Source of the DNA: a virus
Reading direction: 5' to 3' (one strand)
Virus record (IMG/VR): IMGVR_UViG_3300045988_069682
Coordinates: 1 to 64,000 of that record
Length of the DNA stretch: 64,000 nt
Part shown: positions 15,345-64,000 of the stretch, in pieces
Numbering within the stretch: position 1 is the first letter of the stretch
How the letters are laid out: the number at the start of each line of letters is the position of its first letter
Translations under genes and position numbers: made by a program
The notes under the pieces: generated by a model
The model's input: only the letters and a program-made list of their open reading frames with translations
Databases searched by the model: none
Told to the model about the DNA's origin: nothing

Positions 15345-16487
15345 ATGACAAAATATCGAGAAGGCTCTATATATTACGAAACAAACAGAGGCAAATGGCA
15401 CGCTTCCGTCGCCGACCCGCAAGGTCACAGAACGCACAAAAGGTTCGACACGGAAGTGGAAGCAAACGCTTGGCGCTTGAGCATGGCAGCGAAATACATC
15501 AAGGGTAATTATGTTGCGAAAAGCGACATGACTCTAGGGACATGGATTTTGCAATATCTCAGCATATTCGCTAAATCTAAAGTGAGAGAAAAGACCTTCT
15601 TGAACTACGCTAATACCGCTGCGCATATTAATGAAACATTGGCAGACGTAGAGCTGCAAAAACTTTCACCCATTGCAGTCCAGTCCTATATCAACAACGC
15701 AGACATGACAGACGGCATGAAAGACAGATTGGTAAAACTGCTTTGCCGTGCGTCAAAAAAAGCCATTGCAACAGGGCTGATAGAAAAAGACTTCATGGCT
15801 GGGGTAGAAGTGCTCAAACCTGAGCCGAAAGAAGTAGAGATTTTCTCCCCCGAAGAGCTGAATATAATTATGGAAACCATTGACAGCGACGCAAGACTTC
15901 GCAGGCATCATCTGCTTATTTCCGTTGCAATCGCGTCTGGCTGTCGGATGGGAGAGATATTGGCCCTAACACCACAGGATTTAGATGGAGATGCTATAAA
16001 AATCAACAAAAGCCTAGTGGAAGTTAATGGCGTAGCAAAGCTTCAACCACCAAAGACCAAAGCAGGATACAGGAGGATTCCTTTGCCGAAGAATATAATG
16101 GCAGAGCTTTATCAAGCTGCATATGCTCTTAAAGACGAGGAAATCATCAGAAACGCCAAAGGCAACCCGTGCTTAACTACTAACATCGACAAGACGTGGA
16201 AACGGATATTGAAGAAAGCGGGAATTCCTTACAGAAAATTTCATTGTCTGCGCCACACTCATGCGTCGATGCTGCTTGCTGCAGGTGTGCCTATATTGGA
16301 AGTAGCAAAGCGTCTGGGGCATTCTCGCCCTAGCCACACATTAAACCTCTATGGTCATGCTATTCCCGGCTATGACAGCCAAATGCCATCGCTTGTAGAG
16401 AAAGTTTTCAGTTTAGGAAACGGCAATCATGAAGATATTCTTGCCGCATCTTGCCTTGCTTTGCCCTCAACAACCGAAAAAAGTTGA
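15345..16487 (+). CDS. int: tyrosine site-specific integrase
   Basis: C-terminal catalytic pattern: ...CRMGEILAL..., HCLRHTHASMLL, GHSRPSHTLNLYGH (R-H-R-Y set). N-terminal SAM-like domain. AAAGGAGAA SD upstream. Confidence 0.93.
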   Translation: MTKYREGSIYYETNRGKWHASVADPQGHRTHKRFDTEVEANAWRLSMAAKYIKGNYVAKSDMTLGTWILQYLSIFAKSKVREKTFLNYANTAAHINETLADVELQKLSPIAVQSYINNADMTDGMKDRLVKLLCRASKKAIATGLIEKDFMAGVEVLKPEPKEVEIFSPEELNIIMETIDSDARLRRHHLLISVAIASGCRMGEILALTPQDLDGDAIKINKSLVEVNGVAKLQPPKTKAGYRRIPLPKNIMAELYQAAYALKDEEIIRNAKGNPCLTTNIDKTWKRILKKAGIPYRKFHCLRHTHASMLLAAGVPILEVAKRLGHSRPSHTLNLYGHAIPGYDSQMPSLVEKVFSLGNGNHEDILAASCLALPSTTEKS

Positions 16488-46983: not shown

Positions 46984-47059
46984 TGGAGCTGGTGACAGGA
47001 ATCGAACCCGCAACCTAGTGCTTACAAGGCACTTGCACTACCAGTTGTGCTACACCAGC
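46984..47059 (-). tRNA. tRNA-Thr (anticodon UGU), CCA encoded
   Basis: Cloverleaf read by hand: GCTGGTG-TA-GCAC-AACTGGTA-GTGC-A-AGTGC-CTTGTAA-GCACT-AGGTT-GCGGG-TTCGATT-CCTGT-CACCAGC-T-CCA, 76 nt. Confidence 0.85.
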
Positions 47060-54824: not shown

Positions 54825-54870
54825 AACCAATTCCTCCTTGTTGTTGTCGTTGTTGTTGTTGTATTTTAAA

Positions 54871-54896
54871 AGCCTCGTACACACTATACGGAGGCT
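54871..54896 (-). terminator. terminator-like hairpin in the terS leader
   Basis: Minus sense: AGCCTCCG-N11-CGAGGCT followed by TTTTAAAAT. Confidence 0.35.
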
Positions 54897-54898
54897 GA

Positions 54899-54979
54899 TA
54901 CAGTGCTAATCGTACAAGGCTCTTAAAAGCATTAAAAAAGCACTGTAATTTCTTACAGTGCTAATAATAAACAGTGCTA
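54899..54979. promoter_or_regulatory. four copies of TACAGTGCT(A) (3 direct, 1 inverted)
   Basis: Copies at 54899-908, 54939-947 (inverted), 54954-963 and 54971-979. Confidence 0.55.
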
Positions 54980-55764
54980 TGTAGGTACTGTGTAAGTCTA
55001 GGTACTTATTGTTTTACCCCTACCCCTATACCCTACCCCTTGTTTTGTAGAGAATTAAAACGTAGAGTGTTGAATTAAACTCTTGTATCTAAGTGTTTAA
55101 TAATTAAGCTTTAGTTTTAACCTGACTAGATATACCATGTAACCTAAACCCCAACCAGCAAGAGGTACTTACTCACCTCGGGGGCGGGGGCGTGCCCAGG
55201 CGAAAAGCTTATAGAATTTACGTCCGATAATACACGTTATGTTATATTTCGTATAACTTTAGCATTACTGTCCTTCTGTAAAGAACTTTAGTGGTTAACA
55301 GTGAGAGTTTAGTTAATACTAACTATATACCGTATTCTCCTAAATAGCGGCACAACTTACATACTCTAATCTACTAACCATTTATGTAGAACTCTAGAGT
55401 ACAATATAACTGAGTAAGTTAGCCGAGTTTGCTAACTTACTCTATACTAGATTGTACTTAATCAGTAGTTCTCTTACAGTTCTACAAGCTGCTTCCCGTT
55501 GTGATTATTATACCACACAATCGAAGTGCTTATTCTCAAAATAAGCAAAAATTTTATATCGAACTACTATTGCAGTGTAGCTGTAAATACCAGGCTAAAC
55601 TACAGAGAAACGCCGAATGGCGGCGAAAATCCGCCAAAAACGGCGAAAATCCGTCAAATTTGCGTTTTTCCTGCCGTCGTGGCATGATATGGGCAACGGC
55701 AACGAAGCCAGCTGATTGAGAGCTGGTAAGTTAGCTAGAGAGTTTATAAGAAAGAGTGATAATT

Positions 55765-56112
55765 ATGATTAGTGTTAAGAAAATGGGTTTGGTCGTTCCT
55801 GAAGTTGAGAAGAAGGAGAAAGCACCTTCTAAGGCTATTTATAATCGCAAAGTCTTGGCAGATGTCCCCAACTGCATGAAATCCCAATACTGGGAGCAGG
55901 TTGGCTGTGATGTATATGCAGCCGGTGGCATTCTTGGTTTTAAGACTAGCAGCAAAGACGGTATCGTCTTTGCTGGCTATGATACCGAACAGCAGGCTTT
56001 CGAGCTTATTCAGAAGATGGCTAAGCTTGAGATTTATGGCTGCTGGAATATTGTCCAGCATATTGAGACTGGCAAGTTCATGGTTGTTCCGGCTATGAAA
56101 TATAGCAAATAA
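55765..56112 (+). CDS. hypothetical protein (115 aa), first gene of the rightward block
   Basis: ATG at 55765 with a weak SD. Followed by a strong terminator. Confidence 0.55.
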   Translation: MISVKKMGLVVPEVEKKEKAPSKAIYNRKVLADVPNCMKSQYWEQVGCDVYAAGGILGFKTSSKDGIVFAGYDTEQQAFELIQKMAKLEIYGCWNIVQHIETGKFMVVPAMKYSK

Positions 56113-56122
56113 CCCGACCAGG

Positions 56123-56185
56123 CAAGGCGCAGGGATATACTCCCTGCGCCTTAATTATTTTTTTATTTTTTTATTTTTTTAGGAG
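56123..56185 (+). terminator. strong intrinsic terminator with an extended T-tract
   Basis: AAGGCGCAGGGA-TATAC-TCCCTGCGCCTT, then (ATTTTTTT)x3. Confidence 0.85.
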
Positions 56186-56195
56186 GTATTTAATT

Positions 56196-56498
56196 ATGAC
56201 TAAGCAGGAAATTGAGAACGAAATTAAACGTTCTCTTAGTGTTGATGTATGTGAACAGATTCTCTCTGAGGATTCTGTAAGTGAAGATATTAAACTTAAA
56301 GTAGACCGTATTCTTTGGTTTATTGATGAGGGAGAAAGAATTCTCATTGGTTATCCTAACGAGAAACTTAGAGAGGCTTATGAAAAAGACCTTGAAGAGT
56401 GCTACAAAACGCTTGTAGACCTCGCTATGGAAGAACTGCGTAAGCAAGGCAAAATAGACCTTGCTTTAGAGGAGTGGCGTAAACACGTCGAACTCTAA
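56196..56498 (+). CDS. hypothetical acidic helical protein (100 aa)
   Basis: TAGGAGGTATTTAATT upstream. Confidence 0.68.
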   Translation: MTKQEIENEIKRSLSVDVCEQILSEDSVSEDIKLKVDRILWFIDEGERILIGYPNEKLREAYEKDLEECYKTLVDLAMEELRKQGKIDLALEEWRKHVEL

Positions 56499-56511
56499 GG
56501 CGAATGACCAT

Positions 56512-56545
56512 GAGGCTGAGATAAAACTCAGCCTCTGATTTTTTT
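56512..56545 (+). terminator. strong intrinsic terminator
   Basis: GAGGCTGAG-ATAAAA-CTCAGCCTC followed by TGATTTTTTT. Confidence 0.85.
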
Positions 56546-56624
56546 ATGCCGTGTTTTAAACAGCCGTTAAATGCGACTGCTTAAAACGCTGCATAAGCGT
56601 AATTTTAATTAAGGAGGTGTGACT

Positions 56625-56867
56625 ATGCAAAAAATAACCGTGTCGAAAGTAGAAATTAGGCATCAGTATGTAGACGAACTGATGCTGTTTTGCTCTAAAA
56701 GCGAACCGCTTGATAGACGTTGCAAGCATTTCGGGAAAATGAAAGTGTATGGGGAATTGCTCAATAGAGTTCCATACAGAGATATAAAAAGAATGTGCAA
56801 AGTTTGCGGCGTTCCGCAAACGGATGTAGACGATATATTAAAGCTTTTCAAAAGCTTGGGATGTTAA
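56625..56867 (+). CDS. hypothetical protein (80 aa)
   Basis: TAAGGAGGTGTGACT upstream. Confidence 0.68.
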   Translation: MQKITVSKVEIRHQYVDELMLFCSKSEPLDRRCKHFGKMKVYGELLNRVPYRDIKRMCKVCGVPQTDVDDILKLFKSLGC

Positions 56868-56879
56868 GGAGGTGCAATC

Positions 56880-57101
56880 ATGTTGCTTTTGGAAGATTTT
56901 TTGAACAGTCTCCCCAAAACTAAGAAGAAACCGCCTAAAGACACTACTAAGGCGGTTTATCTTGATATTGGTCGTGAATCAAGTCGAGCTTATATTGTGT
57001 CCGACCAGGTATCTTATTACGGCAAGGGTAACTCTTGGGTTGAAAAAGTTGCCCTTAAAAAAGGCGGTGTCACTTTTAAGTGGCATCATAAGGAGGTGTA
57101 A
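56880..57101 (+). CDS. hypothetical basic protein (73 aa)
   Basis: TAAGGAGGTGCAATC upstream. Confidence 0.68.
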   Translation: MLLLEDFLNSLPKTKKKPPKDTTKAVYLDIGRESSRAYIVSDQVSYYGKGNSWVEKVALKKGGVTFKWHHKEV

Positions 57102-57103
57102 TC

Positions 57104-57277
57104 ATGGAAGAAAAAATCGTATTTGTAGGCGGAGCTATTACCTTTCTTAGCTTTGCTGTTGGCGGTGTAACAGTGCTTACACCGTTATACAAGTATGCTG
57201 TTTACGGTATGCTTGTAGGCTTTGCGATTATTGTATTGGGACTCTTGGTAGATGCTTTTAAAGGAGGTGAAAAGTAA
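57104..57277 (+). CDS. small membrane protein (57 aa, 2 TM)
   Basis: Not in the track. TAAGGAGGTGTAATC upstream. Sequence MEEKIVFVGGAITFLSFAVGGVTVLTPLYKYAVYGMLVGFAIIVLGLLVDAF. TAATG coupling downstream. Confidence 0.55.
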   Translation: MEEKIVFVGGAITFLSFAVGGVTVLTPLYKYAVYGMLVGFAIIVLGLLVDAFKGGEK

Positions 57278-57528
57278 TGAAAAAGCATGATGAATGGGCA
57301 GCAGCAGCATGGTGGGGCTATAATAGCGGCATTGCTATTCTTGACCCAACGGCTGAGAACTATGAGGATGCCTTCGCTGACGGCTATGTAAAGTGCATTG
57401 CCTTTGATGGCGATACACAGACTCGCCCAACATGGCATAAGGTTTGCTACAATCGCAATGGAGAACCGTATTTTACGAAATACGGCAGACGCTACTATCT
57501 GGACGAAATGCAGCGTTGCAACTACTAA
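57277..57528 (+). CDS. hypothetical protein (83 aa)
   Basis: AAAGGAGGTGAAAAGTA upstream. Confidence 0.68.
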   Translation: MKKHDEWAAAAWWGYNSGIAILDPTAENYEDAFADGYVKCIAFDGDTQTRPTWHKVCYNRNGEPYFTKYGRRYYLDEMQRCNY

Positions 57529-57557
57529 TAATTAATTATTCTAAGGAGGATTTTATT

Positions 57558-57734
57558 ATGAAAAACAACTTTCGCTTCAAACAAATCATTAAACTTCAAT
57601 CTCTTTTGGTTAAAAGTGGTAAAGGCTCTAAGCCCAGCAGCAATTTGCTGATTACTTGGTTAAAGGTATATGCGATTGTAGACCCATGGGAGTTTGCATA
57701 TCGTATTCCAGCATCTGCGGAACAACTGTTCTAA
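57558..57734 (+). CDS. hypothetical protein (58 aa), paralogue of 58044-58277
   Basis: TAAGGAGGATTTTATT upstream. N-terminus MKNNFRFKQIIKLQSL. Confidence 0.58.
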   Translation: MKNNFRFKQIIKLQSLLVKSGKGSKPSSNLLITWLKVYAIVDPWEFAYRIPASAEQLF

Positions 57735-57822
57735 GCTTTCGGCCTATTTGCAGTATATCGGCTTATGTCGGTATATTGCAGGAGTGGTCGAACACTCAGA
57801 TATTAGAAAGGAGGTTCTGAAT

Positions 57823-58029
57823 ATGGGAAAAGAATGGAATATTGAAGTCCCTAAGGAATTAGCTCAAGTAGCTAAAATCTATCTCAATGTCGTTGGCGTT
57901 AAATGGCATTGCCACGAGTATTCTGATACTCATCATTTGCTTTATTACACAGAACCAGCAGATATTGATTTGCAATCTCAAGTGCAATATGTCCTTGAAA
58001 CCATTAGTTCTGTGCGTGTCAAACATTAA
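57823..58029 (+). CDS. hypothetical protein (68 aa)
   Basis: AAAGGAGGTTCTGAAT upstream. Confidence 0.62.
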   Translation: MGKEWNIEVPKELAQVAKIYLNVVGVKWHCHEYSDTHHLLYYTEPADIDLQSQVQYVLETISSVRVKH

Positions 58030-58043
58030 AGGAGTGACTGATT

Positions 58044-58277
58044 ATGACAAACAAAGCGCGGTTTAAACAAATTGCTAAGTTGGAAAATTTGATGTGGATT
58101 GCAATGCAAAGCAATCTGGAGGCTATGAAAGGCAAAAAAGAGGAATCCGATAAAAAAGCCCTCTTTTTTAAAGCCCTTCGCAACTGCTCTGTTGTAAATA
58201 AAACTAGAGCTATCTTGTGTCTTGAACTTGACAACCTCGCCTCCACAGACGGCTATTACTATCGTAAGGAGGTGTAA
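58044..58277 (+). CDS. hypothetical protein (77 aa), paralogue of 57558-57734
   Basis: AAAGGAGTGACTGATT upstream. N-terminus MTNKARFKQIAKLENL. Confidence 0.62.
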   Translation: MTNKARFKQIAKLENLMWIAMQSNLEAMKGKKEESDKKALFFKALRNCSVVNKTRAILCLELDNLASTDGYYYRKEV

Positions 58278-58279
58278 AT

Positions 58280-59167
58280 ATGGACTACGAGCAGTTAATT
58301 TATAAATGGATTCAAAAGCATTATCCAGAGGGCATTGACATTTACGCTGATTATCGTGATGAAATCAATGCAGAAACAGTTCAAGAACTCTTGAACGCTC
58401 CCTATGATTCTTATACGGCGTTCTGGGAATGGCTTGATGAAGCCTATTGGGAAACTATGGACGACGCTCAACACGATGCCTTTGGGGACATGATGGACGA
58501 TTTAGAAATCGACGATGAAGCACAGTATGATTTCAAAGACGAGTTTTTCGACTACTTTAGAGATAACTGCCCTTGCAATGAACCAACTGACCACTTTTTA
58601 AATCAGTCTTTTTGCTGTGATATTTTTATTGATTCCGGTAACTGGAATTACGATTGCAGCTGCGAGGATTATGGTAGCAATTATTACGCTTCCTTGTACA
58701 AAAATGATAGAATCAGCGATATTCAAGCTGAAAGTTCTATCCTCTGGCTCGCTAGAAAACAAGGTTATAGCAAGCTCAAGCTTTACAACTACCTCTACAA
58801 GAGAAGCTACGCTAAGAAGCATCCTAGCAAGTTCTTACGTAGTGTAGACCAAGAGCTTGCTAATATAACCAGCAATATGAATGTGCTGACATTTGCTACA
58901 ACATTCACTCTGGAAGAGCTTTTAAGATTACACACCGACGATAAAAATGAGCCGTTAAGAATATCTAAAGCCACATCTTGCGGATTATTTGACCCATTCA
59001 ACGGTGGCGGTTCAGTTCTTGAAATAGAGCTTGAAAAGGATATTGTAATCGACCGCAAGTGGGTTGGAGGTATTTATTTGGATGATGCTATAAGAAGAGC
59101 AAGCCCACTCTGCTATGGCATTGATGATGTATATGGCATGTTGGATAGTTTTTGGGAAAGAGGTTAA
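58280..59167 (+). CDS. very acidic hypothetical protein (295 aa)
   Basis: TAAGGAGGTGTAAAT upstream. The N-terminal half is D/E/Y/W-rich (DDAQHDAFGDMMDDLEIDDEAQYDFKDEFFDYF). Confidence 0.72.
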   Translation: MDYEQLIYKWIQKHYPEGIDIYADYRDEINAETVQELLNAPYDSYTAFWEWLDEAYWETMDDAQHDAFGDMMDDLEIDDEAQYDFKDEFFDYFRDNCPCNEPTDHFLNQSFCCDIFIDSGNWNYDCSCEDYGSNYYASLYKNDRISDIQAESSILWLARKQGYSKLKLYNYLYKRSYAKKHPSKFLRSVDQELANITSNMNVLTFATTFTLEELLRLHTDDKNEPLRISKATSCGLFDPFNGGGSVLEIELEKDIVIDRKWVGGIYLDDAIRRASPLCYGIDDVYGMLDSFWERG

Positions 59168-59172
59168 CTATA

Positions 59173-59451
59173 ATGCTTAAATTCAGAATTATCATAAACT
59201 TTAAGAGTTCAGCTACTCTTGACGATGTAAAGTTGAATCGTCATGTAATCAACGAGTTGCAGGAAAAATGCTTGGCTTTTGCTTCAAGCAGTATGTTTGA
59301 AATGTTTAACGACATGCAATGTCGAGTTGACATTAACGCGTACAATGTAGCAATCGCGGGTAATTTAACCCGGTATTTGTTGGGCTGCGACAACGTAGAC
59401 ACTTACTACATAACTAGAATTAACGATTATCTGCCCAAAACTAACGATTAA
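59173..59451 (+). CDS. hypothetical protein (92 aa)
   Basis: AAGAGGTTAACTATA upstream of the ATG at 59173. Confidence 0.58.
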   Translation: MLKFRIIINFKSSATLDDVKLNRHVINELQEKCLAFASSSMFEMFNDMQCRVDINAYNVAIAGNLTRYLLGCDNVDTYYITRINDYLPKTND

Positions 59452-59515
59452 GCGCAAACCCAGCGTCCTACAAGTTAGGGCGTTGGAGGGGTTGCTTAAC
59501 CCAAGAAAGGAGGTG
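59443..59515 (+). ncRNA. structured leader element, copy 1 (conserved flanks, variable 10-bp hairpin)
   Basis: AACGATTAAGCGCAAACC + CAGCGTCCTA-CAAGT-TAGGGCGTTG + GAGGGGTTGCTTAACCCAAGAAAGGAGGTG. The flanks can pair (TTAAGC/GCTTAA, AACC/GGTT). Confidence 0.5.
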
Positions 59516-59521
59516 CTGAAC

Positions 59522-60106
59522 ATGGTTAACAGTGAGTTATACTTTAAAATTCTGGGCAAAGCCGCTAATAAAATAGCAGATTTGCCGCTGGCTGAGCTTT
59601 ATGGAGCAGACAACGCTCTTGAGTTTAGCCAATACGGATTGACTGAAAAAGAGTCAGAGAAACTCTTTGCAAGTGTAAAGCTGGCGAAAGAGCTTCTTAA
59701 CGCCAAAAGGGAAGAAAAACCTTATTTGGCTAACGCAGGAGAAGCAGCAAAATACCTTATGCCGCTTTTGCGGTATGAAAAAAGGGAGCAGTTCTGGGTT
59801 TTGACCTTAAATGCTCGAAATCATGTCACTGATGCAAAAGCAGTGGCGCAAGGCAATTTAAACAACTCCCTTGTACACCCAAGGGACGTTTTTAAATTCG
59901 CATGTTTGAGAGATGCAGCCAGTATTATTGTAGCGCATAATCATCCGTCAGGTGAGGTATCACCTAGTCTGGATGACCAAAAGCTTACTAAATGTCTTGT
60001 TGCCGCTGGTTCTTTTATGGGCATCCCGGTATTAGACCACATAATCATCGGAGACGGTATTTATTACAGTTTCCAAGAAGATGGAGCATTGCCAAAGGAG
60101 GATTAG
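59522..60106 (+). CDS. radC: RadC-like JAB/MPN-domain protein
   Basis: FWVLTLNARNHV...GNLNNSLVHPRDVFK...IIVAHNHPSGEVSPSLDD...LDHIIIGDG is the canonical RadC/JAB motif set. Confidence 0.9.
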   Translation: MVNSELYFKILGKAANKIADLPLAELYGADNALEFSQYGLTEKESEKLFASVKLAKELLNAKREEKPYLANAGEAAKYLMPLLRYEKREQFWVLTLNARNHVTDAKAVAQGNLNNSLVHPRDVFKFACLRDAASIIVAHNHPSGEVSPSLDDQKLTKCLVAAGSFMGIPVLDHIIIGDGIYYSFQEDGALPKED

Positions 60107-60108
60107 TT

Positions 60109-60417
60109 ATGTATAAGTTTAGAATATGCTATGAAGGTCAAGGGCAAGGTTGCGGTTTTGATAGTTTTATACCTGCCTACAATGCGTATTTAGCATTATT
60201 GAGCCAGTTCCGAGACACAGCTCTTTTAATTGACAAAGACTTTTGCAAGGCACGCGTTATTTTTCCCTGTGCATACGTTAAGTTCTGGTTAGAGATTTGG
60301 AGCGAGGAGAGAAACCAGTATAGCACCGTTTTCAACGACGATATTTATTCTTATATCTGCGATGACATTGAAAATGTTTTGATTGAAAACGGCGGCAAAA
60401 ACTTGAAGGGGGAGTAA
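60109..60417 (+). CDS. hypothetical protein (102 aa)
   Basis: AAAGGAGGATTAGTT upstream. Confidence 0.62.
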   Translation: MYKFRICYEGQGQGCGFDSFIPAYNAYLALLSQFRDTALLIDKDFCKARVIFPCAYVKFWLEIWSEERNQYSTVFNDDIYSYICDDIENVLIENGGKNLKGE

Positions 60418-60421
60418 AAAA

Positions 60422-60616
60422 ATGCCTAGCAAAGTTACGGTCTGTGTCAATGGTCAAGAAGTCACTTTAAGCTTGCACACTACTACGCAAGGTACTTTCG
60501 TGAGTCTGCAAAACTGTTATTCCATGTGTTATGTCGGCTATGAGTTCGACGAAATGATAGATGCTTATATTGAGCATCTGAGAAAAATTGCTCAAGAAAT
60601 GAAAGGCGGTGAATAA
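60422..60616 (+). CDS. hypothetical protein (64 aa)
   Basis: GAAGGGGGAGTAAAAAA upstream. Confidence 0.58.
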   Translation: MPSKVTVCVNGQEVTLSLHTTTQGTFVSLQNCYSMCYVGYEFDEMIDAYIEHLRKIAQEMKGGE

Positions 60617-60617
60617 T

Positions 60618-61004
60618 ATGACAGCTAAATTGAGTCACAGTTCAATTATTGACGCTCTGGAAGAGTTAAGCCGTAATGATTTAATCTCCATCCACAATGA
60701 TTATTGTCAGGCAAACAGCTATTACGATGAGTTTATTTATCAAAATTGTGAATACGAGCTTGGAGTTTATTTGGGGTTCACCCAAGATTACCTAGAGGCA
60801 TTCAAGGCGGGCTACGATGCTTATAAGAGCGGCTACAGACTCGTCGACGATTATTTCCATGATGACCGCTTAGGTAGCATGGAAAGTTGCAATAGACCAG
60901 AAGATGACTGGATTGACACTGATGATATAGCCGAATGGTTAGAACGCAACTTCACTGACGAAGAAATTGCCCAAAAATTAGATATTGATTTAGAGGAGGA
61001 ATAA
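60618..61004 (+). CDS. acidic hypothetical protein (128 aa)
   Basis: AAAGGCGGTGAATAAT upstream. D/E/Y-rich. Confidence 0.65.
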   Translation: MTAKLSHSSIIDALEELSRNDLISIHNDYCQANSYYDEFIYQNCEYELGVYLGFTQDYLEAFKAGYDAYKSGYRLVDDYFHDDRLGSMESCNRPEDDWIDTDDIAEWLERNFTDEEIAQKLDIDLEEE

Positions 61005-61006
61005 TC

Positions 61007-61075
61007 ATGTTAGAACCCGGTGATATTATTTTTTGCGACAACGTAAATTACAAATCTGCAAGGAGAAAACATTAA
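61007..61075 (+). CDS. possible micro-ORF (22 aa, MLEPGDIIFCDNVNYKSARRKH)
   Basis: GAGGAGGAATAATC sits directly upstream. Very short and unverified. Confidence 0.25.
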   Translation: MLEPGDIIFCDNVNYKSARRKH

Positions 61076-61092
61076 CAAGGAGGTAGTATTTT

Positions 61093-61389
61093 ATGGATTA
61101 TTTAGAAATTGTATCTTATGAACGCCAATCAAAATACGATACAAAAGTTATTTTGAAAATAAATCGCGGCAGTGACAAGTTGCTTTTTAGAGTTGAACAC
61201 CCATACGTTCCCGACGACGCAAAATATTTCACCTGTTATGTAGACTATGTTTTCAACTACAGAGTCTACGCTATTGGAGAAAAATATAAAGAGCCTTTTT
61301 CTTCGAGTTATCGGTTCGATGACCGAAACGACAGAATTATCGCCGACATAAGGAAAGTAGTAACTCCATTCGTTAGGAAAGTTCGCTAA
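61093..61389 (+). CDS. hypothetical protein (98 aa)
   Basis: CAAGGAGGTAGTATTTT upstream. Confidence 0.62.
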   Translation: MDYLEIVSYERQSKYDTKVILKINRGSDKLLFRVEHPYVPDDAKYFTCYVDYVFNYRVYAIGEKYKEPFSSSYRFDDRNDRIIADIRKVVTPFVRKVR

Positions 61390-61405
61390 TTTCATTGCTC
61401 GAATA

Positions 61406-61480
61406 AACGATTAAGCGCAAACCTAGCACATCAGCTTCGTTGGTGTGCTAGAGGGGTTGCTTAACCCAAGAAAGGAGGTG
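61406..61480 (+). ncRNA. structured leader element, copy 2 (same flanks, different 11-bp hairpin)
   Basis: AACGATTAAGCGCAAACC + TAGCACATCAG-CTTCG-TTGGTGTGCTA + GAGGGGTTGCTTAACCCAAGAAAGGAGGTG. Confidence 0.5.
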
Positions 61481-61486
61481 TCAATT

Positions 61487-61741
61487 ATGGAACGCAGGTA
61501 CAAGTATCTTGTTAAGGCGATTGCTAAAATGCCAAAGCACGATATGGGCAACGGATATTATGTGCAAGTGTCGTATGACACAAGTGACGATACCGTATTG
61601 TCAGACTGGCACGTTTCTCTTGGATTTAACGAGTGGTGTCAGTATCACAACCCCAGTATCATTTTTGTTGGCAATTATACCAAAAAGATAAGCAAAAAAG
61701 AGCTTATCGAACACATTGAAGCTGCTATAAGGAGGGATTAA
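61487..61741 (+). CDS. hypothetical protein (84 aa)
   Basis: The ATG lies 6 nt after the element's AAGGAGGTG. Confidence 0.62.
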   Translation: MERRYKYLVKAIAKMPKHDMGNGYYVQVSYDTSDDTVLSDWHVSLGFNEWCQYHNPSIIFVGNYTKKISKKELIEHIEAAIRRD

Positions 61742-61742
61742 C

Positions 61743-62291
61743 ATGGAATTACGAATCAAAGGACACTTAAACACAATAACCACCTACAACAATGGTCATA
61801 CAACGCTGACTCTGAAAGAAGAGGATTTACTCAAGTTGCAGGAAGCCATAGACTTCCATTATTTCGACCAGGATTTTCACAACTTTCTGGAGTTGGAACA
61901 TGAACCAACATGCTTTTCAGATGGTTGTGAACTGTCAACGCTCAAAAGATTCTGGGAATTGTACAAGGATGCGCAAGATGTGAATATCGCTGAATGGGAC
62001 ACATTTAAAAGTGCTTACGAAGCGGCAAAAGGCATAGATGGTTTTTGGTGGCCTTGTTCTAATTGCGGCTGTGATGTATTTGGGGAGTGGCCCGAAGTAG
62101 ACGCTAACGGCAATGTATATTGTGACGCTTGCGCAGAAGAAGTTCTCGGTTACTGTGATTACTGTGATGAAAAGGTGTTGCTCAACAAGCTTTACCCTTT
62201 CAACCAGAACGACAAATTCATTTGTCAAGAATGCTTGCTGCAAGGTATTGAGAACGGCACCTTTGAGATTAAAGAAACGGAGGAAGAGTAA
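61743..62291 (+). CDS. Cys-rich (four CxxC pairs) double zinc-ribbon protein (182 aa)
   Basis: CSNCGC...CDAC...CDYCDE...CQEC. TAAGGAGGGATTAAC upstream. Confidence 0.68.
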   Translation: MELRIKGHLNTITTYNNGHTTLTLKEEDLLKLQEAIDFHYFDQDFHNFLELEHEPTCFSDGCELSTLKRFWELYKDAQDVNIAEWDTFKSAYEAAKGIDGFWWPCSNCGCDVFGEWPEVDANGNVYCDACAEEVLGYCDYCDEKVLLNKLYPFNQNDKFICQECLLQGIENGTFEIKETEEE

Positions 62292-62293
62292 TT

Positions 62294-62923
62294 ATGGGAA
62301 ACAGAGCAGTTATTATCAGCAAAAAGGATATGAAGAACGGGAGAATCTCCCCTAACCAAATCGGAGTTTACTTGCACTGGAATGGCGGTCGTGATAGCGT
62401 GGAAGCTTTCTTGAGATATTGCGAATACAAAAACTACCGTACTCCAGATACCGACTGCTATGGCTGGGCAAGACTCTGCCAAGTAATCGGCAATTTCTTC
62501 GGCGGTAACACAAGCCTTGGCATCGATGTTGCAAAGAACCTTGATTGCGACAATGGAGATAACGGCGTTTACATCATCGAAGGTTGGGAAATTGTCGGAC
62601 GCAAATATTTTAACAGCAAGGAGCAAGACCACTATAGCATGTTTGATATGTTGTATGAAATTGATTCCGCCCAGCCTAAAGCGGAACAGCTTGGTAAAAA
62701 GTTTTGGGCTGCTGAAGAACTGCCACCAGAAGCAATGGATGTTGGCGATGAAGTTTTTATCAGAAACTGGGACGGAACATACTCGCTAGAAAAAATAGTG
62801 GGTTACAGCAATGATTTTCAATCTACTCCCTGTTACGAGCGAAACGGTAAGCAAATCCCGATTATGTCCTCTCTAGGCGGAAGTTATACGGATGATGTTT
62901 TCAGAGTATTGAAACAACTTTAA
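62294..62923 (+). CDS. hypothetical protein (209 aa)
   Basis: ACGGAGGAAGAGTAATT upstream. No motif recognised. Confidence 0.7.
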   Translation: MGNRAVIISKKDMKNGRISPNQIGVYLHWNGGRDSVEAFLRYCEYKNYRTPDTDCYGWARLCQVIGNFFGGNTSLGIDVAKNLDCDNGDNGVYIIEGWEIVGRKYFNSKEQDHYSMFDMLYEIDSAQPKAEQLGKKFWAAEELPPEAMDVGDEVFIRNWDGTYSLEKIVGYSNDFQSTPCYERNGKQIPIMSSLGGSYTDDVFRVLKQL

Positions 62924-63007
62924 TATGATTTAGTCTATTCACAGCCTACAAAATTAGATTTGTAGGTTGTGGCAGTGATTAAATCACTGGGAAAGAAGGA
63001 ATAAAAA

Positions 63008-63340
63008 ATGAATATTCAAATCATCAACCTGTGTCCGCACGAAATTAATATTAAGGACGCTAATGGTAAGCTGTGGAATCTGCCACCTAACGAGACTCCG
63101 GCAAGAGTGCTGACAGACTTTTGCCCTTCATTTTACGTCGGTGCAATAGGCGTGTTTACTAGACGTTTCATTGATAACGTCGACTTGCCACCAGTAACAG
63201 ACGGCACAATGTATATCGTTTCGCGGCAAGTTGCCACCTTCAACCCCAACAGAAGAGATTTAATGGTTCCCGGAGCCACTTATACGGAAAACGGCACCAC
63301 TTATTGCGTAGGTTTAGAGATTATCGAAGGGAGGCGCTAA
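63008..63340 (+). CDS. hypothetical protein (110 aa)
   Basis: GAAGGAATAAAAA upstream. Confidence 0.65.
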   Translation: MNIQIINLCPHEINIKDANGKLWNLPPNETPARVLTDFCPSFYVGAIGVFTRRFIDNVDLPPVTDGTMYIVSRQVATFNPNRRDLMVPGATYTENGTTYCVGLEIIEGRR

Positions 63341-63342
63341 TT

Positions 63343-63711
63343 TTGGAACGTGAATATGAATTTGATTATGGTTTTTGGGGAATGTATCCGAATGTTTTGG
63401 CATGTGGTGAGAAAGCGTTTGAGCTGCTTGGAGAGCACTTTGAAGTAAGCTCTTTAGAGCTTTCTGATATTGAAGATGCTGCCAAGTGGGATGTTCTCTC
63501 TGCTTTAGCAGAAGCTGAACGCCAAGGTAAAAATCCTTTTTATGATTCAGAACCGTTTATATTGTCTAATTTAATAAACCAGTATAAATTAGACCACTTA
63601 ATTGCCTATATTTGCAGAACCCAAGGATTGGATGAAGATGACTTCGAGCACGATGCCTACAATGACGGCACGCTAGTTGATGTGCGCTATAAAGGCGAAG
63701 TTATTGCATAA
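63343..63711 (+). CDS. hypothetical acidic protein (122 aa, TTG start)
   Basis: GGGAGG lies 8 nt upstream of the in-frame TTG at 63343. Confidence 0.55.
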   Translation: MEREYEFDYGFWGMYPNVLACGEKAFELLGEHFEVSSLELSDIEDAAKWDVLSALAEAERQGKNPFYDSEPFILSNLINQYKLDHLIAYICRTQGLDEDDFEHDAYNDGTLVDVRYKGEVIA

Positions 63712-63727
63712 AAGGAGGCGGAAACTG

Positions 63728-64000
63728 ATGAAAACTTATAAAACTTACAAAGATTTATACGATTATATTGAAATTGACAAGAACACCAACAGACACTCAC
63801 ACTACAGAAAGGGTGTGCTTACTATTGCCATGATGATGTTGGAACCTATTATATCTAGCAAGCCAGATTCTCCATTGCCCACCAGTTGGGATGTATTAAA
63901 AGACGATTTGTTGAACGGCGCTGACAATTTTCGCCAGTACGCTTTCACAGGTAATCCCTATGCGTATGACGAGGATATAGCGAAGCTGCTTCTTTCTCCG
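63728..64000 (+). CDS. hypothetical protein, 5' part only (runs off the window)
   Basis: AAGGAGGCGGAAACTG upstream of the ATG at 63728. The frame stays open for 91 codons to the window end. Confidence 0.6.
   Translation, partial: MKTYKTYKDLYDYIEIDKNTNRHSHYRKGVLTIAMMMLEPIISSKPDSPLPTSWDVLKDDLLNGADNFRQYAFTGNPYAYDEDIAKLLLSP

Follow-up and report, generated by a model that had tools for sequence, protein, structure and literature searches.

Two short intergenic elements of a phage, one upstream of radC and one upstream of the gene for an 84-aa protein, are members of an uncatalogued family of structured intercistronic RNAs, approximately 60 nt in length, of temperate human-gut phages. The phage is represented by the IMG/VR virus record IMGVR_UViG_3300045988_069682 (68,221 bp, 45% G+C, with a terminal overlap of 75 bp), of which positions 1-64000 have been analysed and are referred to here as the window. 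The fold of the element, an outer stem (P1, 7-10 bp) followed by an internal loop of approximately 4 by 4 nt and an inner hairpin (P2, 11-14 bp), is supported by covariation, and the folded molecule is the sense strand, most simply the mRNA. With moderate confidence, and by analogy with the RNase III sites of phages T7 and SP82, we read the elements as putative intercistronic punctuation of a sense-strand polycistronic early mRNA, which, as comparisons of related phages show, double as recombination joints comparable to the promoter early stem-loops (PeSLs) of T4-type phages.

The fold and the strand that folds

The fold is recovered when RNAalifold is applied to 25 distinct copies in a plain MAFFT alignment, built with no structural fitting: P1 (here 7-8 bp), the internal loop and P2 (here 11 bp or more) emerge, with one or more compensatory double changes in 14 of 19 pairs. 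With 46 distinct copies, 97.4% of the cells are paired, both sides vary in 15 of the 19 pairs and 180 cells are compensatory, such cell counts overstating the number of independent events because the copies are kin by descent. None of 500 shuffles attained the observed values, and pairing was at 31-44% when the 3' partners were slid by 1-3 columns. Covarying variants of P1 include TTAAG/CTTAA, TTGAG/CTCAA, TTCAG/CTGAA, and TTTAGG/CCTAA.

An earlier reading of this DNA, made from its letters and open reading frames (ORFs) and referred to here as the sequence-only reading, had proposed that a structure kept while its sequence is replaced marks a functional single-stranded element, and this proposal is now strongly supported, by covariation and by a bias toward G.U pairs. 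Over 73 distinct copies, the 19 pairs contain, on the gene strand, 203 G.U cells versus 17 A.C cells; equal numbers of the two would be expected of a symmetric cruciform in double-stranded DNA, and the excess thus points to the sense single strand as the folded species. All copies are co-oriented with the genes, and sense matches score 41-80 bits with the covariance models described below, antisense matches at most 36 bits. A self-cleaving ribozyme has been considered and rejected, given the lack of both an Rfam match and conservation of the internal loops across subfamilies.

Members of the family, their register and their exchange

The two starting copies, which the sequence-only reading placed correctly, share an 18-nt 5' block, AACGATTAAGCGCAAACC, found exactly twice (59443-59460 and 61406-61423), and a 30-nt 3' block, GAGGGGTTGCTTAACCCAAGAAAGGAGGTG, also found exactly twice (59486-59515 and 61451-61480), while neither block was matched twice in any of 100 dinucleotide-preserving shuffles. 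Between the blocks, copy 1 reads CAGCGTCCTA-CAAGT-TAGGGCGTTG and copy 2 reads TAGCACATCAG(C)-TTC-(G)TTGGTGTGCTA. These central sequences fold into hairpins as claimed, of 10 bp with a 5-nt loop in copy 1 and of 11-12 bp with a 3-5-nt loop in copy 2, with G.U pairs in both, and the respective energies as RNA are -12.8 and -15.4 kcal/mol for the + strand and -4.3 and -8.1 kcal/mol for the - strand. For the core alone, the structure of lowest energy is the long interrupted helix that had been suggested, in which TTAAGCG/TGCTTAA closes the hairpin with an internal loop in between, and covariation in the relatives supports it. The two hairpins are not unrelated, as had been thought: they align column for column, with compensatory changes at four pairs, and represent two alleles (type 1 and type 2), both recurring in other phages. 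Neither is the element limited to two copies, as this genome holds four members of the family. Across phages only TTAAGCGCAAACC...GAGGGGTTGCTTAACC is kept, the AACGA prefix and the suffix containing the Shine-Dalgarno (SD) sequence being common to the closest relative only.

Exact-pattern scans for the core detected it in six other IMG/VR contigs, in one prophage contig of a Phascolarctobacterium metagenome-assembled genome (MAG), and in 14 human-gut metagenome contigs. Covariance models were built from nine core copies (R1) and then from 25 copies (R2), and the search for further copies proposed with the original observation was positive, revealing two diverged members in the window (E1 and E4; Table 1) and 2-10 sense-strand members per related phage. 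In the related phages, all members are clustered within the small-gene operon, and in one complete relative (G007) each of eight consecutive genes has one element ahead of it. No element was found outside the prophage contig in the 2.5-Mb host MAG, and among 140 host-family genomes only two have the element. With Rfam 15, nothing in the window reached the gathering threshold except one tRNA, and nothing matched at the elements up to E=5 in the 55-64 kb region. Some of the block or pattern matches were discarded as chance, two (L005 and L006) lying in an unrelated, coding-like context and a third, in a Bacteroidetes MAG (L008), having no hairpin between the blocks. A mimic of a CRISPR repeat, or a solitary repeat unit, has also been rejected, given that no copies are present elsewhere in the host MAG and that structure rather than sequence is conserved. 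Just past the window, at 64208-64243 of this genome, a perfect 14-bp hairpin, TTTTAGGGCATCAC...GTGATGCCCTAAGG, without an internal loop or a T-run, is located between two genes; it is missed by R2 and may be another kind of intercistronic hairpin.

The register of the element relative to the genes is precise. Each of the 47 distinct copies analysed lies between cistrons, the upstream ORF ending at most 25 nt before the element, and the SD and the start codon following at 3-23 nt and 12-38 nt past it. In 25 of the 47 copies, the stop codon of the upstream gene occupies positions 4-6 of the element, within the 5' arm of P1, and the embedded stops, whether TAA, TGA, or TAG, covary with their pairing partners.

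Another feature is an alternative hairpin, P3, recognized in nearly every subfamily, in which nucleotides of the 3' side of the internal loop are paired with 3-7 nt just past the element, the 3' arm of P1 becoming the loop. The stem of P3 is GGGTT/AACCC in E2 and E3, GAGTG/CACTC in E1, and CAGTGAT/ATCACTG in E4, and in other subfamilies it is GGTTGC/GCAATC, GAGCG/CGCTC, or GGTAGC/GTTGCC. Native P3 folds have a mean energy of -6.85 kcal/mol, compared to -2.1 (sd 1.9) for shuffles and -4.0 for tails exchanged between subfamilies, and P3 starts 0-3 nt after P2. As P1 and P3 overlap (in the core subfamily) or have no linker between them, they are mutually exclusive, representing alternative folds; for the same reason, the lack of a linker between the 3' arm of P1 and the 3' strand of P3, a P1/P3 pseudoknot has been rejected as sterically impossible. 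By constrained folding, form A (P1 and P2) has a mean energy of -26.2 kcal/mol and form B (P2 and P3) of -24.7 kcal/mol, the gap being 0.3 for both E2 and E3. Of 27 distinct windows, 20 have an SD-like motif in the 3' internal loop, the number in shuffles being 12.5; the signal is weak, as these windows are G-rich and related. Thus, while the fold and the flanks had been seen from the sequence alone, P3, the stem-embedded stop, the multi-copy family, and the allelic nature of the hairpins had been missed. To our knowledge, the conserved bistable P1/P3 design and a stop codon within the stem are undescribed for phage processing hairpins and PeSLs, and we know of no description of a conserved alternative 3' hairpin or of a stem-embedded stop for the sites of T7 or SP82.

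The elements are also implicated in gene exchange, and the suggestion that they may lie at module boundaries is borne out by comparisons with the related phages, in which breakpoints are located at elements. In four pairwise comparisons, homology blocks among four relatives (G007, G002, G005, and G006) start or stop inside an element or within approximately 45 nt of one, and whole element-plus-gene units, those of the 175-, 172-, and 188-aa genes, occur in some phages but not in others. These breakpoints are scattered over the element and the leader, which is the pattern that homologous rather than site-specific exchange would produce. One case is that of the closest relative (G001), with approximately 84% identity across the region: its element ahead of radC carries a type-2 hairpin, 92% identical to copy 2, and its element ahead of the homologue of the 84-aa gene carries a type-1 hairpin, 96% identical to copy 1, the two hairpins being swapped, between identical flanks, relative to this genome. 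Such a swap could have arisen if the intervening segment was excised through crossing over between the 3' blocks and then re-inserted through crossing over between the 5' blocks, a mini-circle route of the kind proposed for PeSLs (PMC2839356). The comparisons show that the same-orientation repeats also serve as crossover points for gain, loss, and exchange of element-plus-gene units. The closest relative also misses the 102-aa gene found here at 60109-60417, the deletion extending from just past the radC stop to the start of the next gene, with no element at either edge. In yet another relative (G004, at approximately 4619-4679 of L053) and at L012:2326-2380, a Cys-rich HNH-like gene (LGCFRDLSGKTFGRLTV...) directly follows a type-2 element, in that one relative taking the place of a gene whose product begins with MGNRAV in other phages, and it looks like an insertion at the element boundary.

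Possible roles of the element

The reading we favour is that of processing sites of the T7/SP82 type. A role for RNase III fits the anatomy of the element, and we infer it from geometry and analogy. Host RNase III would cut form A in or beside the 3' side of the internal loop, as it does at the early sites of T7 and SP82, and the upstream message would then keep P2 as a protective hairpin at its 3' end. In the downstream message, the newly formed 5' end would refold into P3, positioned 0-3 nt from that end and just ahead of the ribosome-binding site, where it would act as a 5' protector, and every cistron would become a separately stabilised message. Internal loops at the targets of RNase III result in single-strand cleavage, leaving 3' hairpins that are determinants of stability (PMC3867540), and the targets on record for Bacillus RNase III include the early mRNA of SP82 (PMC4838370). 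The phage itself does not encode RNase III, and both of the prophage-bearing host MAGs do (245 and 261 bits with TIGR02191, the curated cut-off being 166). Work of the Bechhofer laboratory is said to indicate that hairpins at 5' termini and 5'-proximal SD-like sequences stabilise mRNA in Firmicutes.

The stop codon embedded in P1, along with the nearly equal energies of the two forms, suggests that termination by the upstream ribosome may gate the choice between them: a ribosome terminating within P1 would favour form B and could in this way gate the cut. We propose only tentatively that the element is such a translation-gated, self-insulating mRNA joint, in which the stop in P1 would flip the cleavable helix to P2 and P3. 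If this were true, cutting a cistron free and capping it at both ends would depend on the translation of its upstream neighbour, the portable module would bring along the stop, the processing site, the protective hairpins, and the leader, and an early, possibly anti-defence operon would represent an integron-like cassette array operating with no recombinase. Islands of small early genes in phages, often anti-defence genes, swap fast, and the proper expression of the newcomers is poorly understood; a portable RNA module combining a stop, a processing or stability signal, a leader, and recombination repeats could explain both the swapping and the expression. Such a module would also broaden the PeSL idea, which comes from the T4-type phages of Proteobacteria, to include temperate phages of the gut that infect Negativicutes, the promoter being replaced by an RNA fold. 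The family is, in addition, a clean, covariation-supported candidate for a new Rfam entry, and its two conserved, exclusive conformers present a tractable test case for translation-coupled mRNA processing.

As to the known systems, the elements are best classed as a variant of phage intercistronic processing hairpins and PeSL-like shuffling cassettes. With the RNase III sites of T7 and SP82 they have in common the presence of several related copies in one polycistronic early operon, between a stop and the next ribosome-binding site, a helix of approximately 20 bp (about two turns) interrupted by an internal loop, and the potential to leave a 3' hairpin on the upstream message. However, there is no sequence similarity to those sites, the host is a Negativicute, and cleavage is here putative. 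Likewise, the PeSLs of T4-type phages (Arbiol et al., 2010, PMC2839356; Comeau et al., 2014, PMC4122927) are repeated intergenic motifs extending from an upstream stop to a downstream SD, with G-T pairs in their stems, found in a hyperplastic region of small orphan early genes, and mosaic breakpoints, gene gain, loss, and replacement occur at them, the hairpin swap seen here matching the mini-circle route. PeSLs, however, are defined by a strong sigma-70 promoter and a terminator stem-loop (PMC2839356, PMC4122927), whereas the elements described here possess neither a promoter nor a T-run, their conserved trait being a two-tier, covarying, bistable RNA fold. The similarity extends in part to the start-associated sequence (SAS) and the extended SAS, these being, like the element, repeated phage-specific motifs immediately upstream of many starts, some copies with inverted repeats. 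The SAS, reportedly described by Pope and colleagues in 2011 for Cluster K mycobacteriophages, is said to be a conserved 13-bp sequence next to the start codon, whereas the element is conserved in structure, measures approximately 60 nt, and has its own SD leader before the start. Further examples of intercistronic hairpins are the repetitive extragenic palindromes and bacterial interspersed mosaic elements (REP/BIME) and the Correia repeat-enclosed elements (CREE), which can stabilise upstream mRNA segments or, in the case of Correia, be cut by RNase III. In contrast to the elements of this one phage operon, with their one orientation and one register, those are scattered by the hundreds over host chromosomes, in both orientations.

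Some of the observations weigh against RNase III punctuation. One is the element being dispensable at a given junction: the gene for a Cys-rich 182-aa protein and the 209-aa MGNRAV gene abut directly here (62291/62294), whereas an element is found in between in one relative (G006) and in others, suggesting that occupancy of the junctions is facultative. Another is that the register of P3 varies among subfamilies, its support being energetic and not from column covariation, and that P3 is missing in one subfamily (TATTAAGTCAC, four members). A third is that C.A mismatches occur on the sense strand of some type-2 hairpins, at one or two positions each, and one of these hairpins folds better as antisense. 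The copies present a series of T.G, C-G, and C.A, which identifies the C.A changes as ordinary point changes, and nested inversions converting T.G to C.A have been rejected, as the C-G intermediate turned up among further copies and point mutation is sufficient. A fourth is the presence of conserved nucleotides, the UU...AA base of P1, the invariant A18-U44 pair, a recurrent U.G at columns 24-38, and GU at alignment columns 51-52, that hint at a sequence-specific partner. Bacterial RNase III is usually not sequence-specific.

The main rival, which we consider possible but rather doubtful, is a translation-sensing switch operating with no cleavage, in which a terminating ribosome would melt P1, allowing P3 to form and either coupling or insulating the translation, or re-initiation, of the next cistron; the compact fold would bring the stop and the start close together. 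The fixed position of the stop within P1 in 25 of the 47 copies, with TAA, TGA, and TAG covarying with their partners, speaks for such a switch, as do the mutual exclusion and near-equal energies of P1 and P3 and the SD within 3-23 nt. However, in the other 22 copies the stop is 1-25 nt upstream, so that the melting of P1 would be incomplete, the SD is not sequestered in either of the two forms, and many junctions of the same operon couple directly, via overlapping or abutting stops and starts, with no element.

A less likely explanation is that the element is the binding site of a sequence- and structure-specific RNA-binding protein, encoded by an orphan gene of the phage or by the host, which would repress, activate, or protect the cistrons. 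Invariant or near-invariant nucleotides inside an otherwise covarying helix and internal-loop sequences specific to each subfamily speak for such a site, but loop sequences differ greatly among the subfamilies within one phage, all of which a single protein would have to tolerate, and no RNA-binding protein is recognizable among the operon proteins, for which Pfam and PHROGs yield almost nothing.

Less likely still is an attC-like site, as in integrons, for the recombination of single-stranded DNA, with a recombinase acting on the folded sense strand to excise and insert element-plus-gene cassettes. The likeness to attC lies in a co-oriented array with a single structured, imperfectly palindromic site for each promoterless ORF, in the conservation of the outer arms around a variable centre, and in strand-biased folding; cassettes are present or absent as whole units, with hairpins swapped in the relative. 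Hairpin tips are, moreover, flipped in DNA: the loop changes from ATCT to AGAT in otherwise identical stems (L062:628-688 versus L068:852-912), implying that the hairpins extrude in DNA, and a 10-nt tip is exactly inverted between L012:2326-2380 and L007:1837-1891. Tip flipping, however, is known behaviour of hairpin-forming DNA, resembling the small hairpin inversions of plastid DNA, and says little about element function. There are also differences from attC. No integron integrase is present, TIGR02249 giving at best 23-31 bits against a cut-off of 265 bits; the sole match is the phage integrase approximately 40 kb off, and two of the four element-bearing phages have none. On the gene strand, the sequence of the element is (N)TTAAGC ... 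GCTTAAC, an order opposite to that of the attC core boxes, and its boxes are TTAAGC...GCTTAA, not RYYYAAC...GTTRRRY. Finally, the crossovers are scattered over element and leader rather than occurring at one fixed point, and the elements are positioned 5' of the SD, as leaders.

The two remaining explanations are very improbable. One is an attenuator or terminator of transcription, or a strict PeSL cassette combining promoter and terminator. In its favour, the element, like a PeSL (PMC2839356), is a stable, GC-rich hairpin located between genes in a variable early region, but in all four copies the stem lacks a following T-run and no match to -35/-10 is present, the operon's own terminators have clear T-runs, and in the 54.5-64 kb region none of the 23 promoter-like sites (a number equal to the shuffle expectation) and none of the 24 terminator-like sites overlaps an element, so that the elements are neither strict PeSLs nor intrinsic terminators. 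A selfish miniature mobile element, of the kind of miniature inverted-repeat transposable elements (MITEs), REP, or Correia, with no function for the phage, merits equally little credence: the inverted-repeat ends (TTAAGC...GCTTAA) with TTAA at both tips, the multiple copies, and the facultative occupancy are in its favour, but one orientation and one precise stop-to-SD register characterise all copies, there are none elsewhere in the 2.5-Mb host MAG and in all but two of the 140 host-family genomes, compensatory change keeps the pairing over deep divergence, and no transposase is associated.

Operon and genome context

The positions of the elements, of their helices, and of the neighbouring features are listed in Table 1. 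The operon in which all four elements reside comprises approximately 27 genes between 55.9 and 66.6 kb, every one on the + strand, mostly encoding proteins of 57-210 aa that are nearly all orphans. RadC (59522-60106) is the sole clear Pfam match among them, a match to an ArdA-like protein being weak and below the cut-off. The operon ends at a bidirectional terminator. As canonical terminators with T-runs also follow its first two genes, the approximately 25 genes downstream must need read-through or antitermination.

Table 1. Elements, helices, and neighbouring features in the window (bit scores refer to the covariance models R1 and R2)
Feature	Positions	Strand	Helices and remarks
Element E1, diverged, between the 58-aa and 68-aa genes	57736-57796	+	P1 57738-57744/57786-57792; P2 57747-57762/57767-57783; P3 57782-57786/57793-57797; 34.7 bits with R1, 58.8 bits with R2
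Element E2 (copy 1), upstream of radC	59446-59503	+	P1 59448-59454/59493-59499; P2 59459-59470/59476-59488, loop 59471-59475
Alternative hairpin P3 of E2	59489-59493/59498-59502		
TAA stop of the upstream 92-aa gene	59449-59451	+	Within the P1 5' arm of E2
SD and start of radC	59509-59524	+	GGAGG 59509-59513, ATG 59522-59524; 10 nt past the P1 3' arm of E2
Element E3 (copy 2), upstream of the 84-aa gene	61409-61468	+	P1 61411-61417/61458-61464; P2 61424-61435/61439-61450; P3 61454-61458/61463-61467
SD and start of the 84-aa gene	61474-61489	+	GGAGG 61474-61478, ATG 61487-61489; after E3
Element E4, diverged, upstream of the 110-aa gene	62927-62987	+	P1 62929-62935/62977-62983; P2 62938-62952/62959-62974; P3 62973-62979/62983-62989; 50.3 bits with R2
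One-directional small-gene operon	55910-64000	+	Continues to approximately 66.6 kb; contains all four elements
Canonical intrinsic terminator	56124-56170	+	12-bp GC-rich stem and T-run, after the first gene of the operon
Second canonical T-run terminator	56512-56545		After the second gene of the operon

The phage encodes a tyrosine integrase (15345-16487), and a megablast of 5 kb against a collection of known phages produced no match. A 3,836-aa ORF was considered as an N4-like virion RNA polymerase that would recognize hairpin promoters and was rejected, the protein being a large polyvalent protein (LPD38, PBECR5, MuF_C); an N4-type hairpin promoter has been rejected also because it is the sense, non-template strand on which the hairpins have their best folds.

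A 1.1-kb non-coding, divergent stretch (54825-55909) separates the leftward from the rightward gene block. It has several hairpins and, near 55620-55660, a tandem GGCGAAAATCCG(C/T)C motif, and it may hold the early promoter and operators, or an origin. Some orphan proteins are kept in all these phages, namely the MGNRAV... protein (approximately 209 aa), a 108-110-aa protein with ...IINLC.HEINIKD..., and a 305-aa protein starting with MCII; they are located at 62294-62923 and 63008-63340 of the window and at 5304-9223 of L047, and have no Pfam match. The leftward late block contains a tRNA-Thr (TGT) gene on the - strand (46984-47059).

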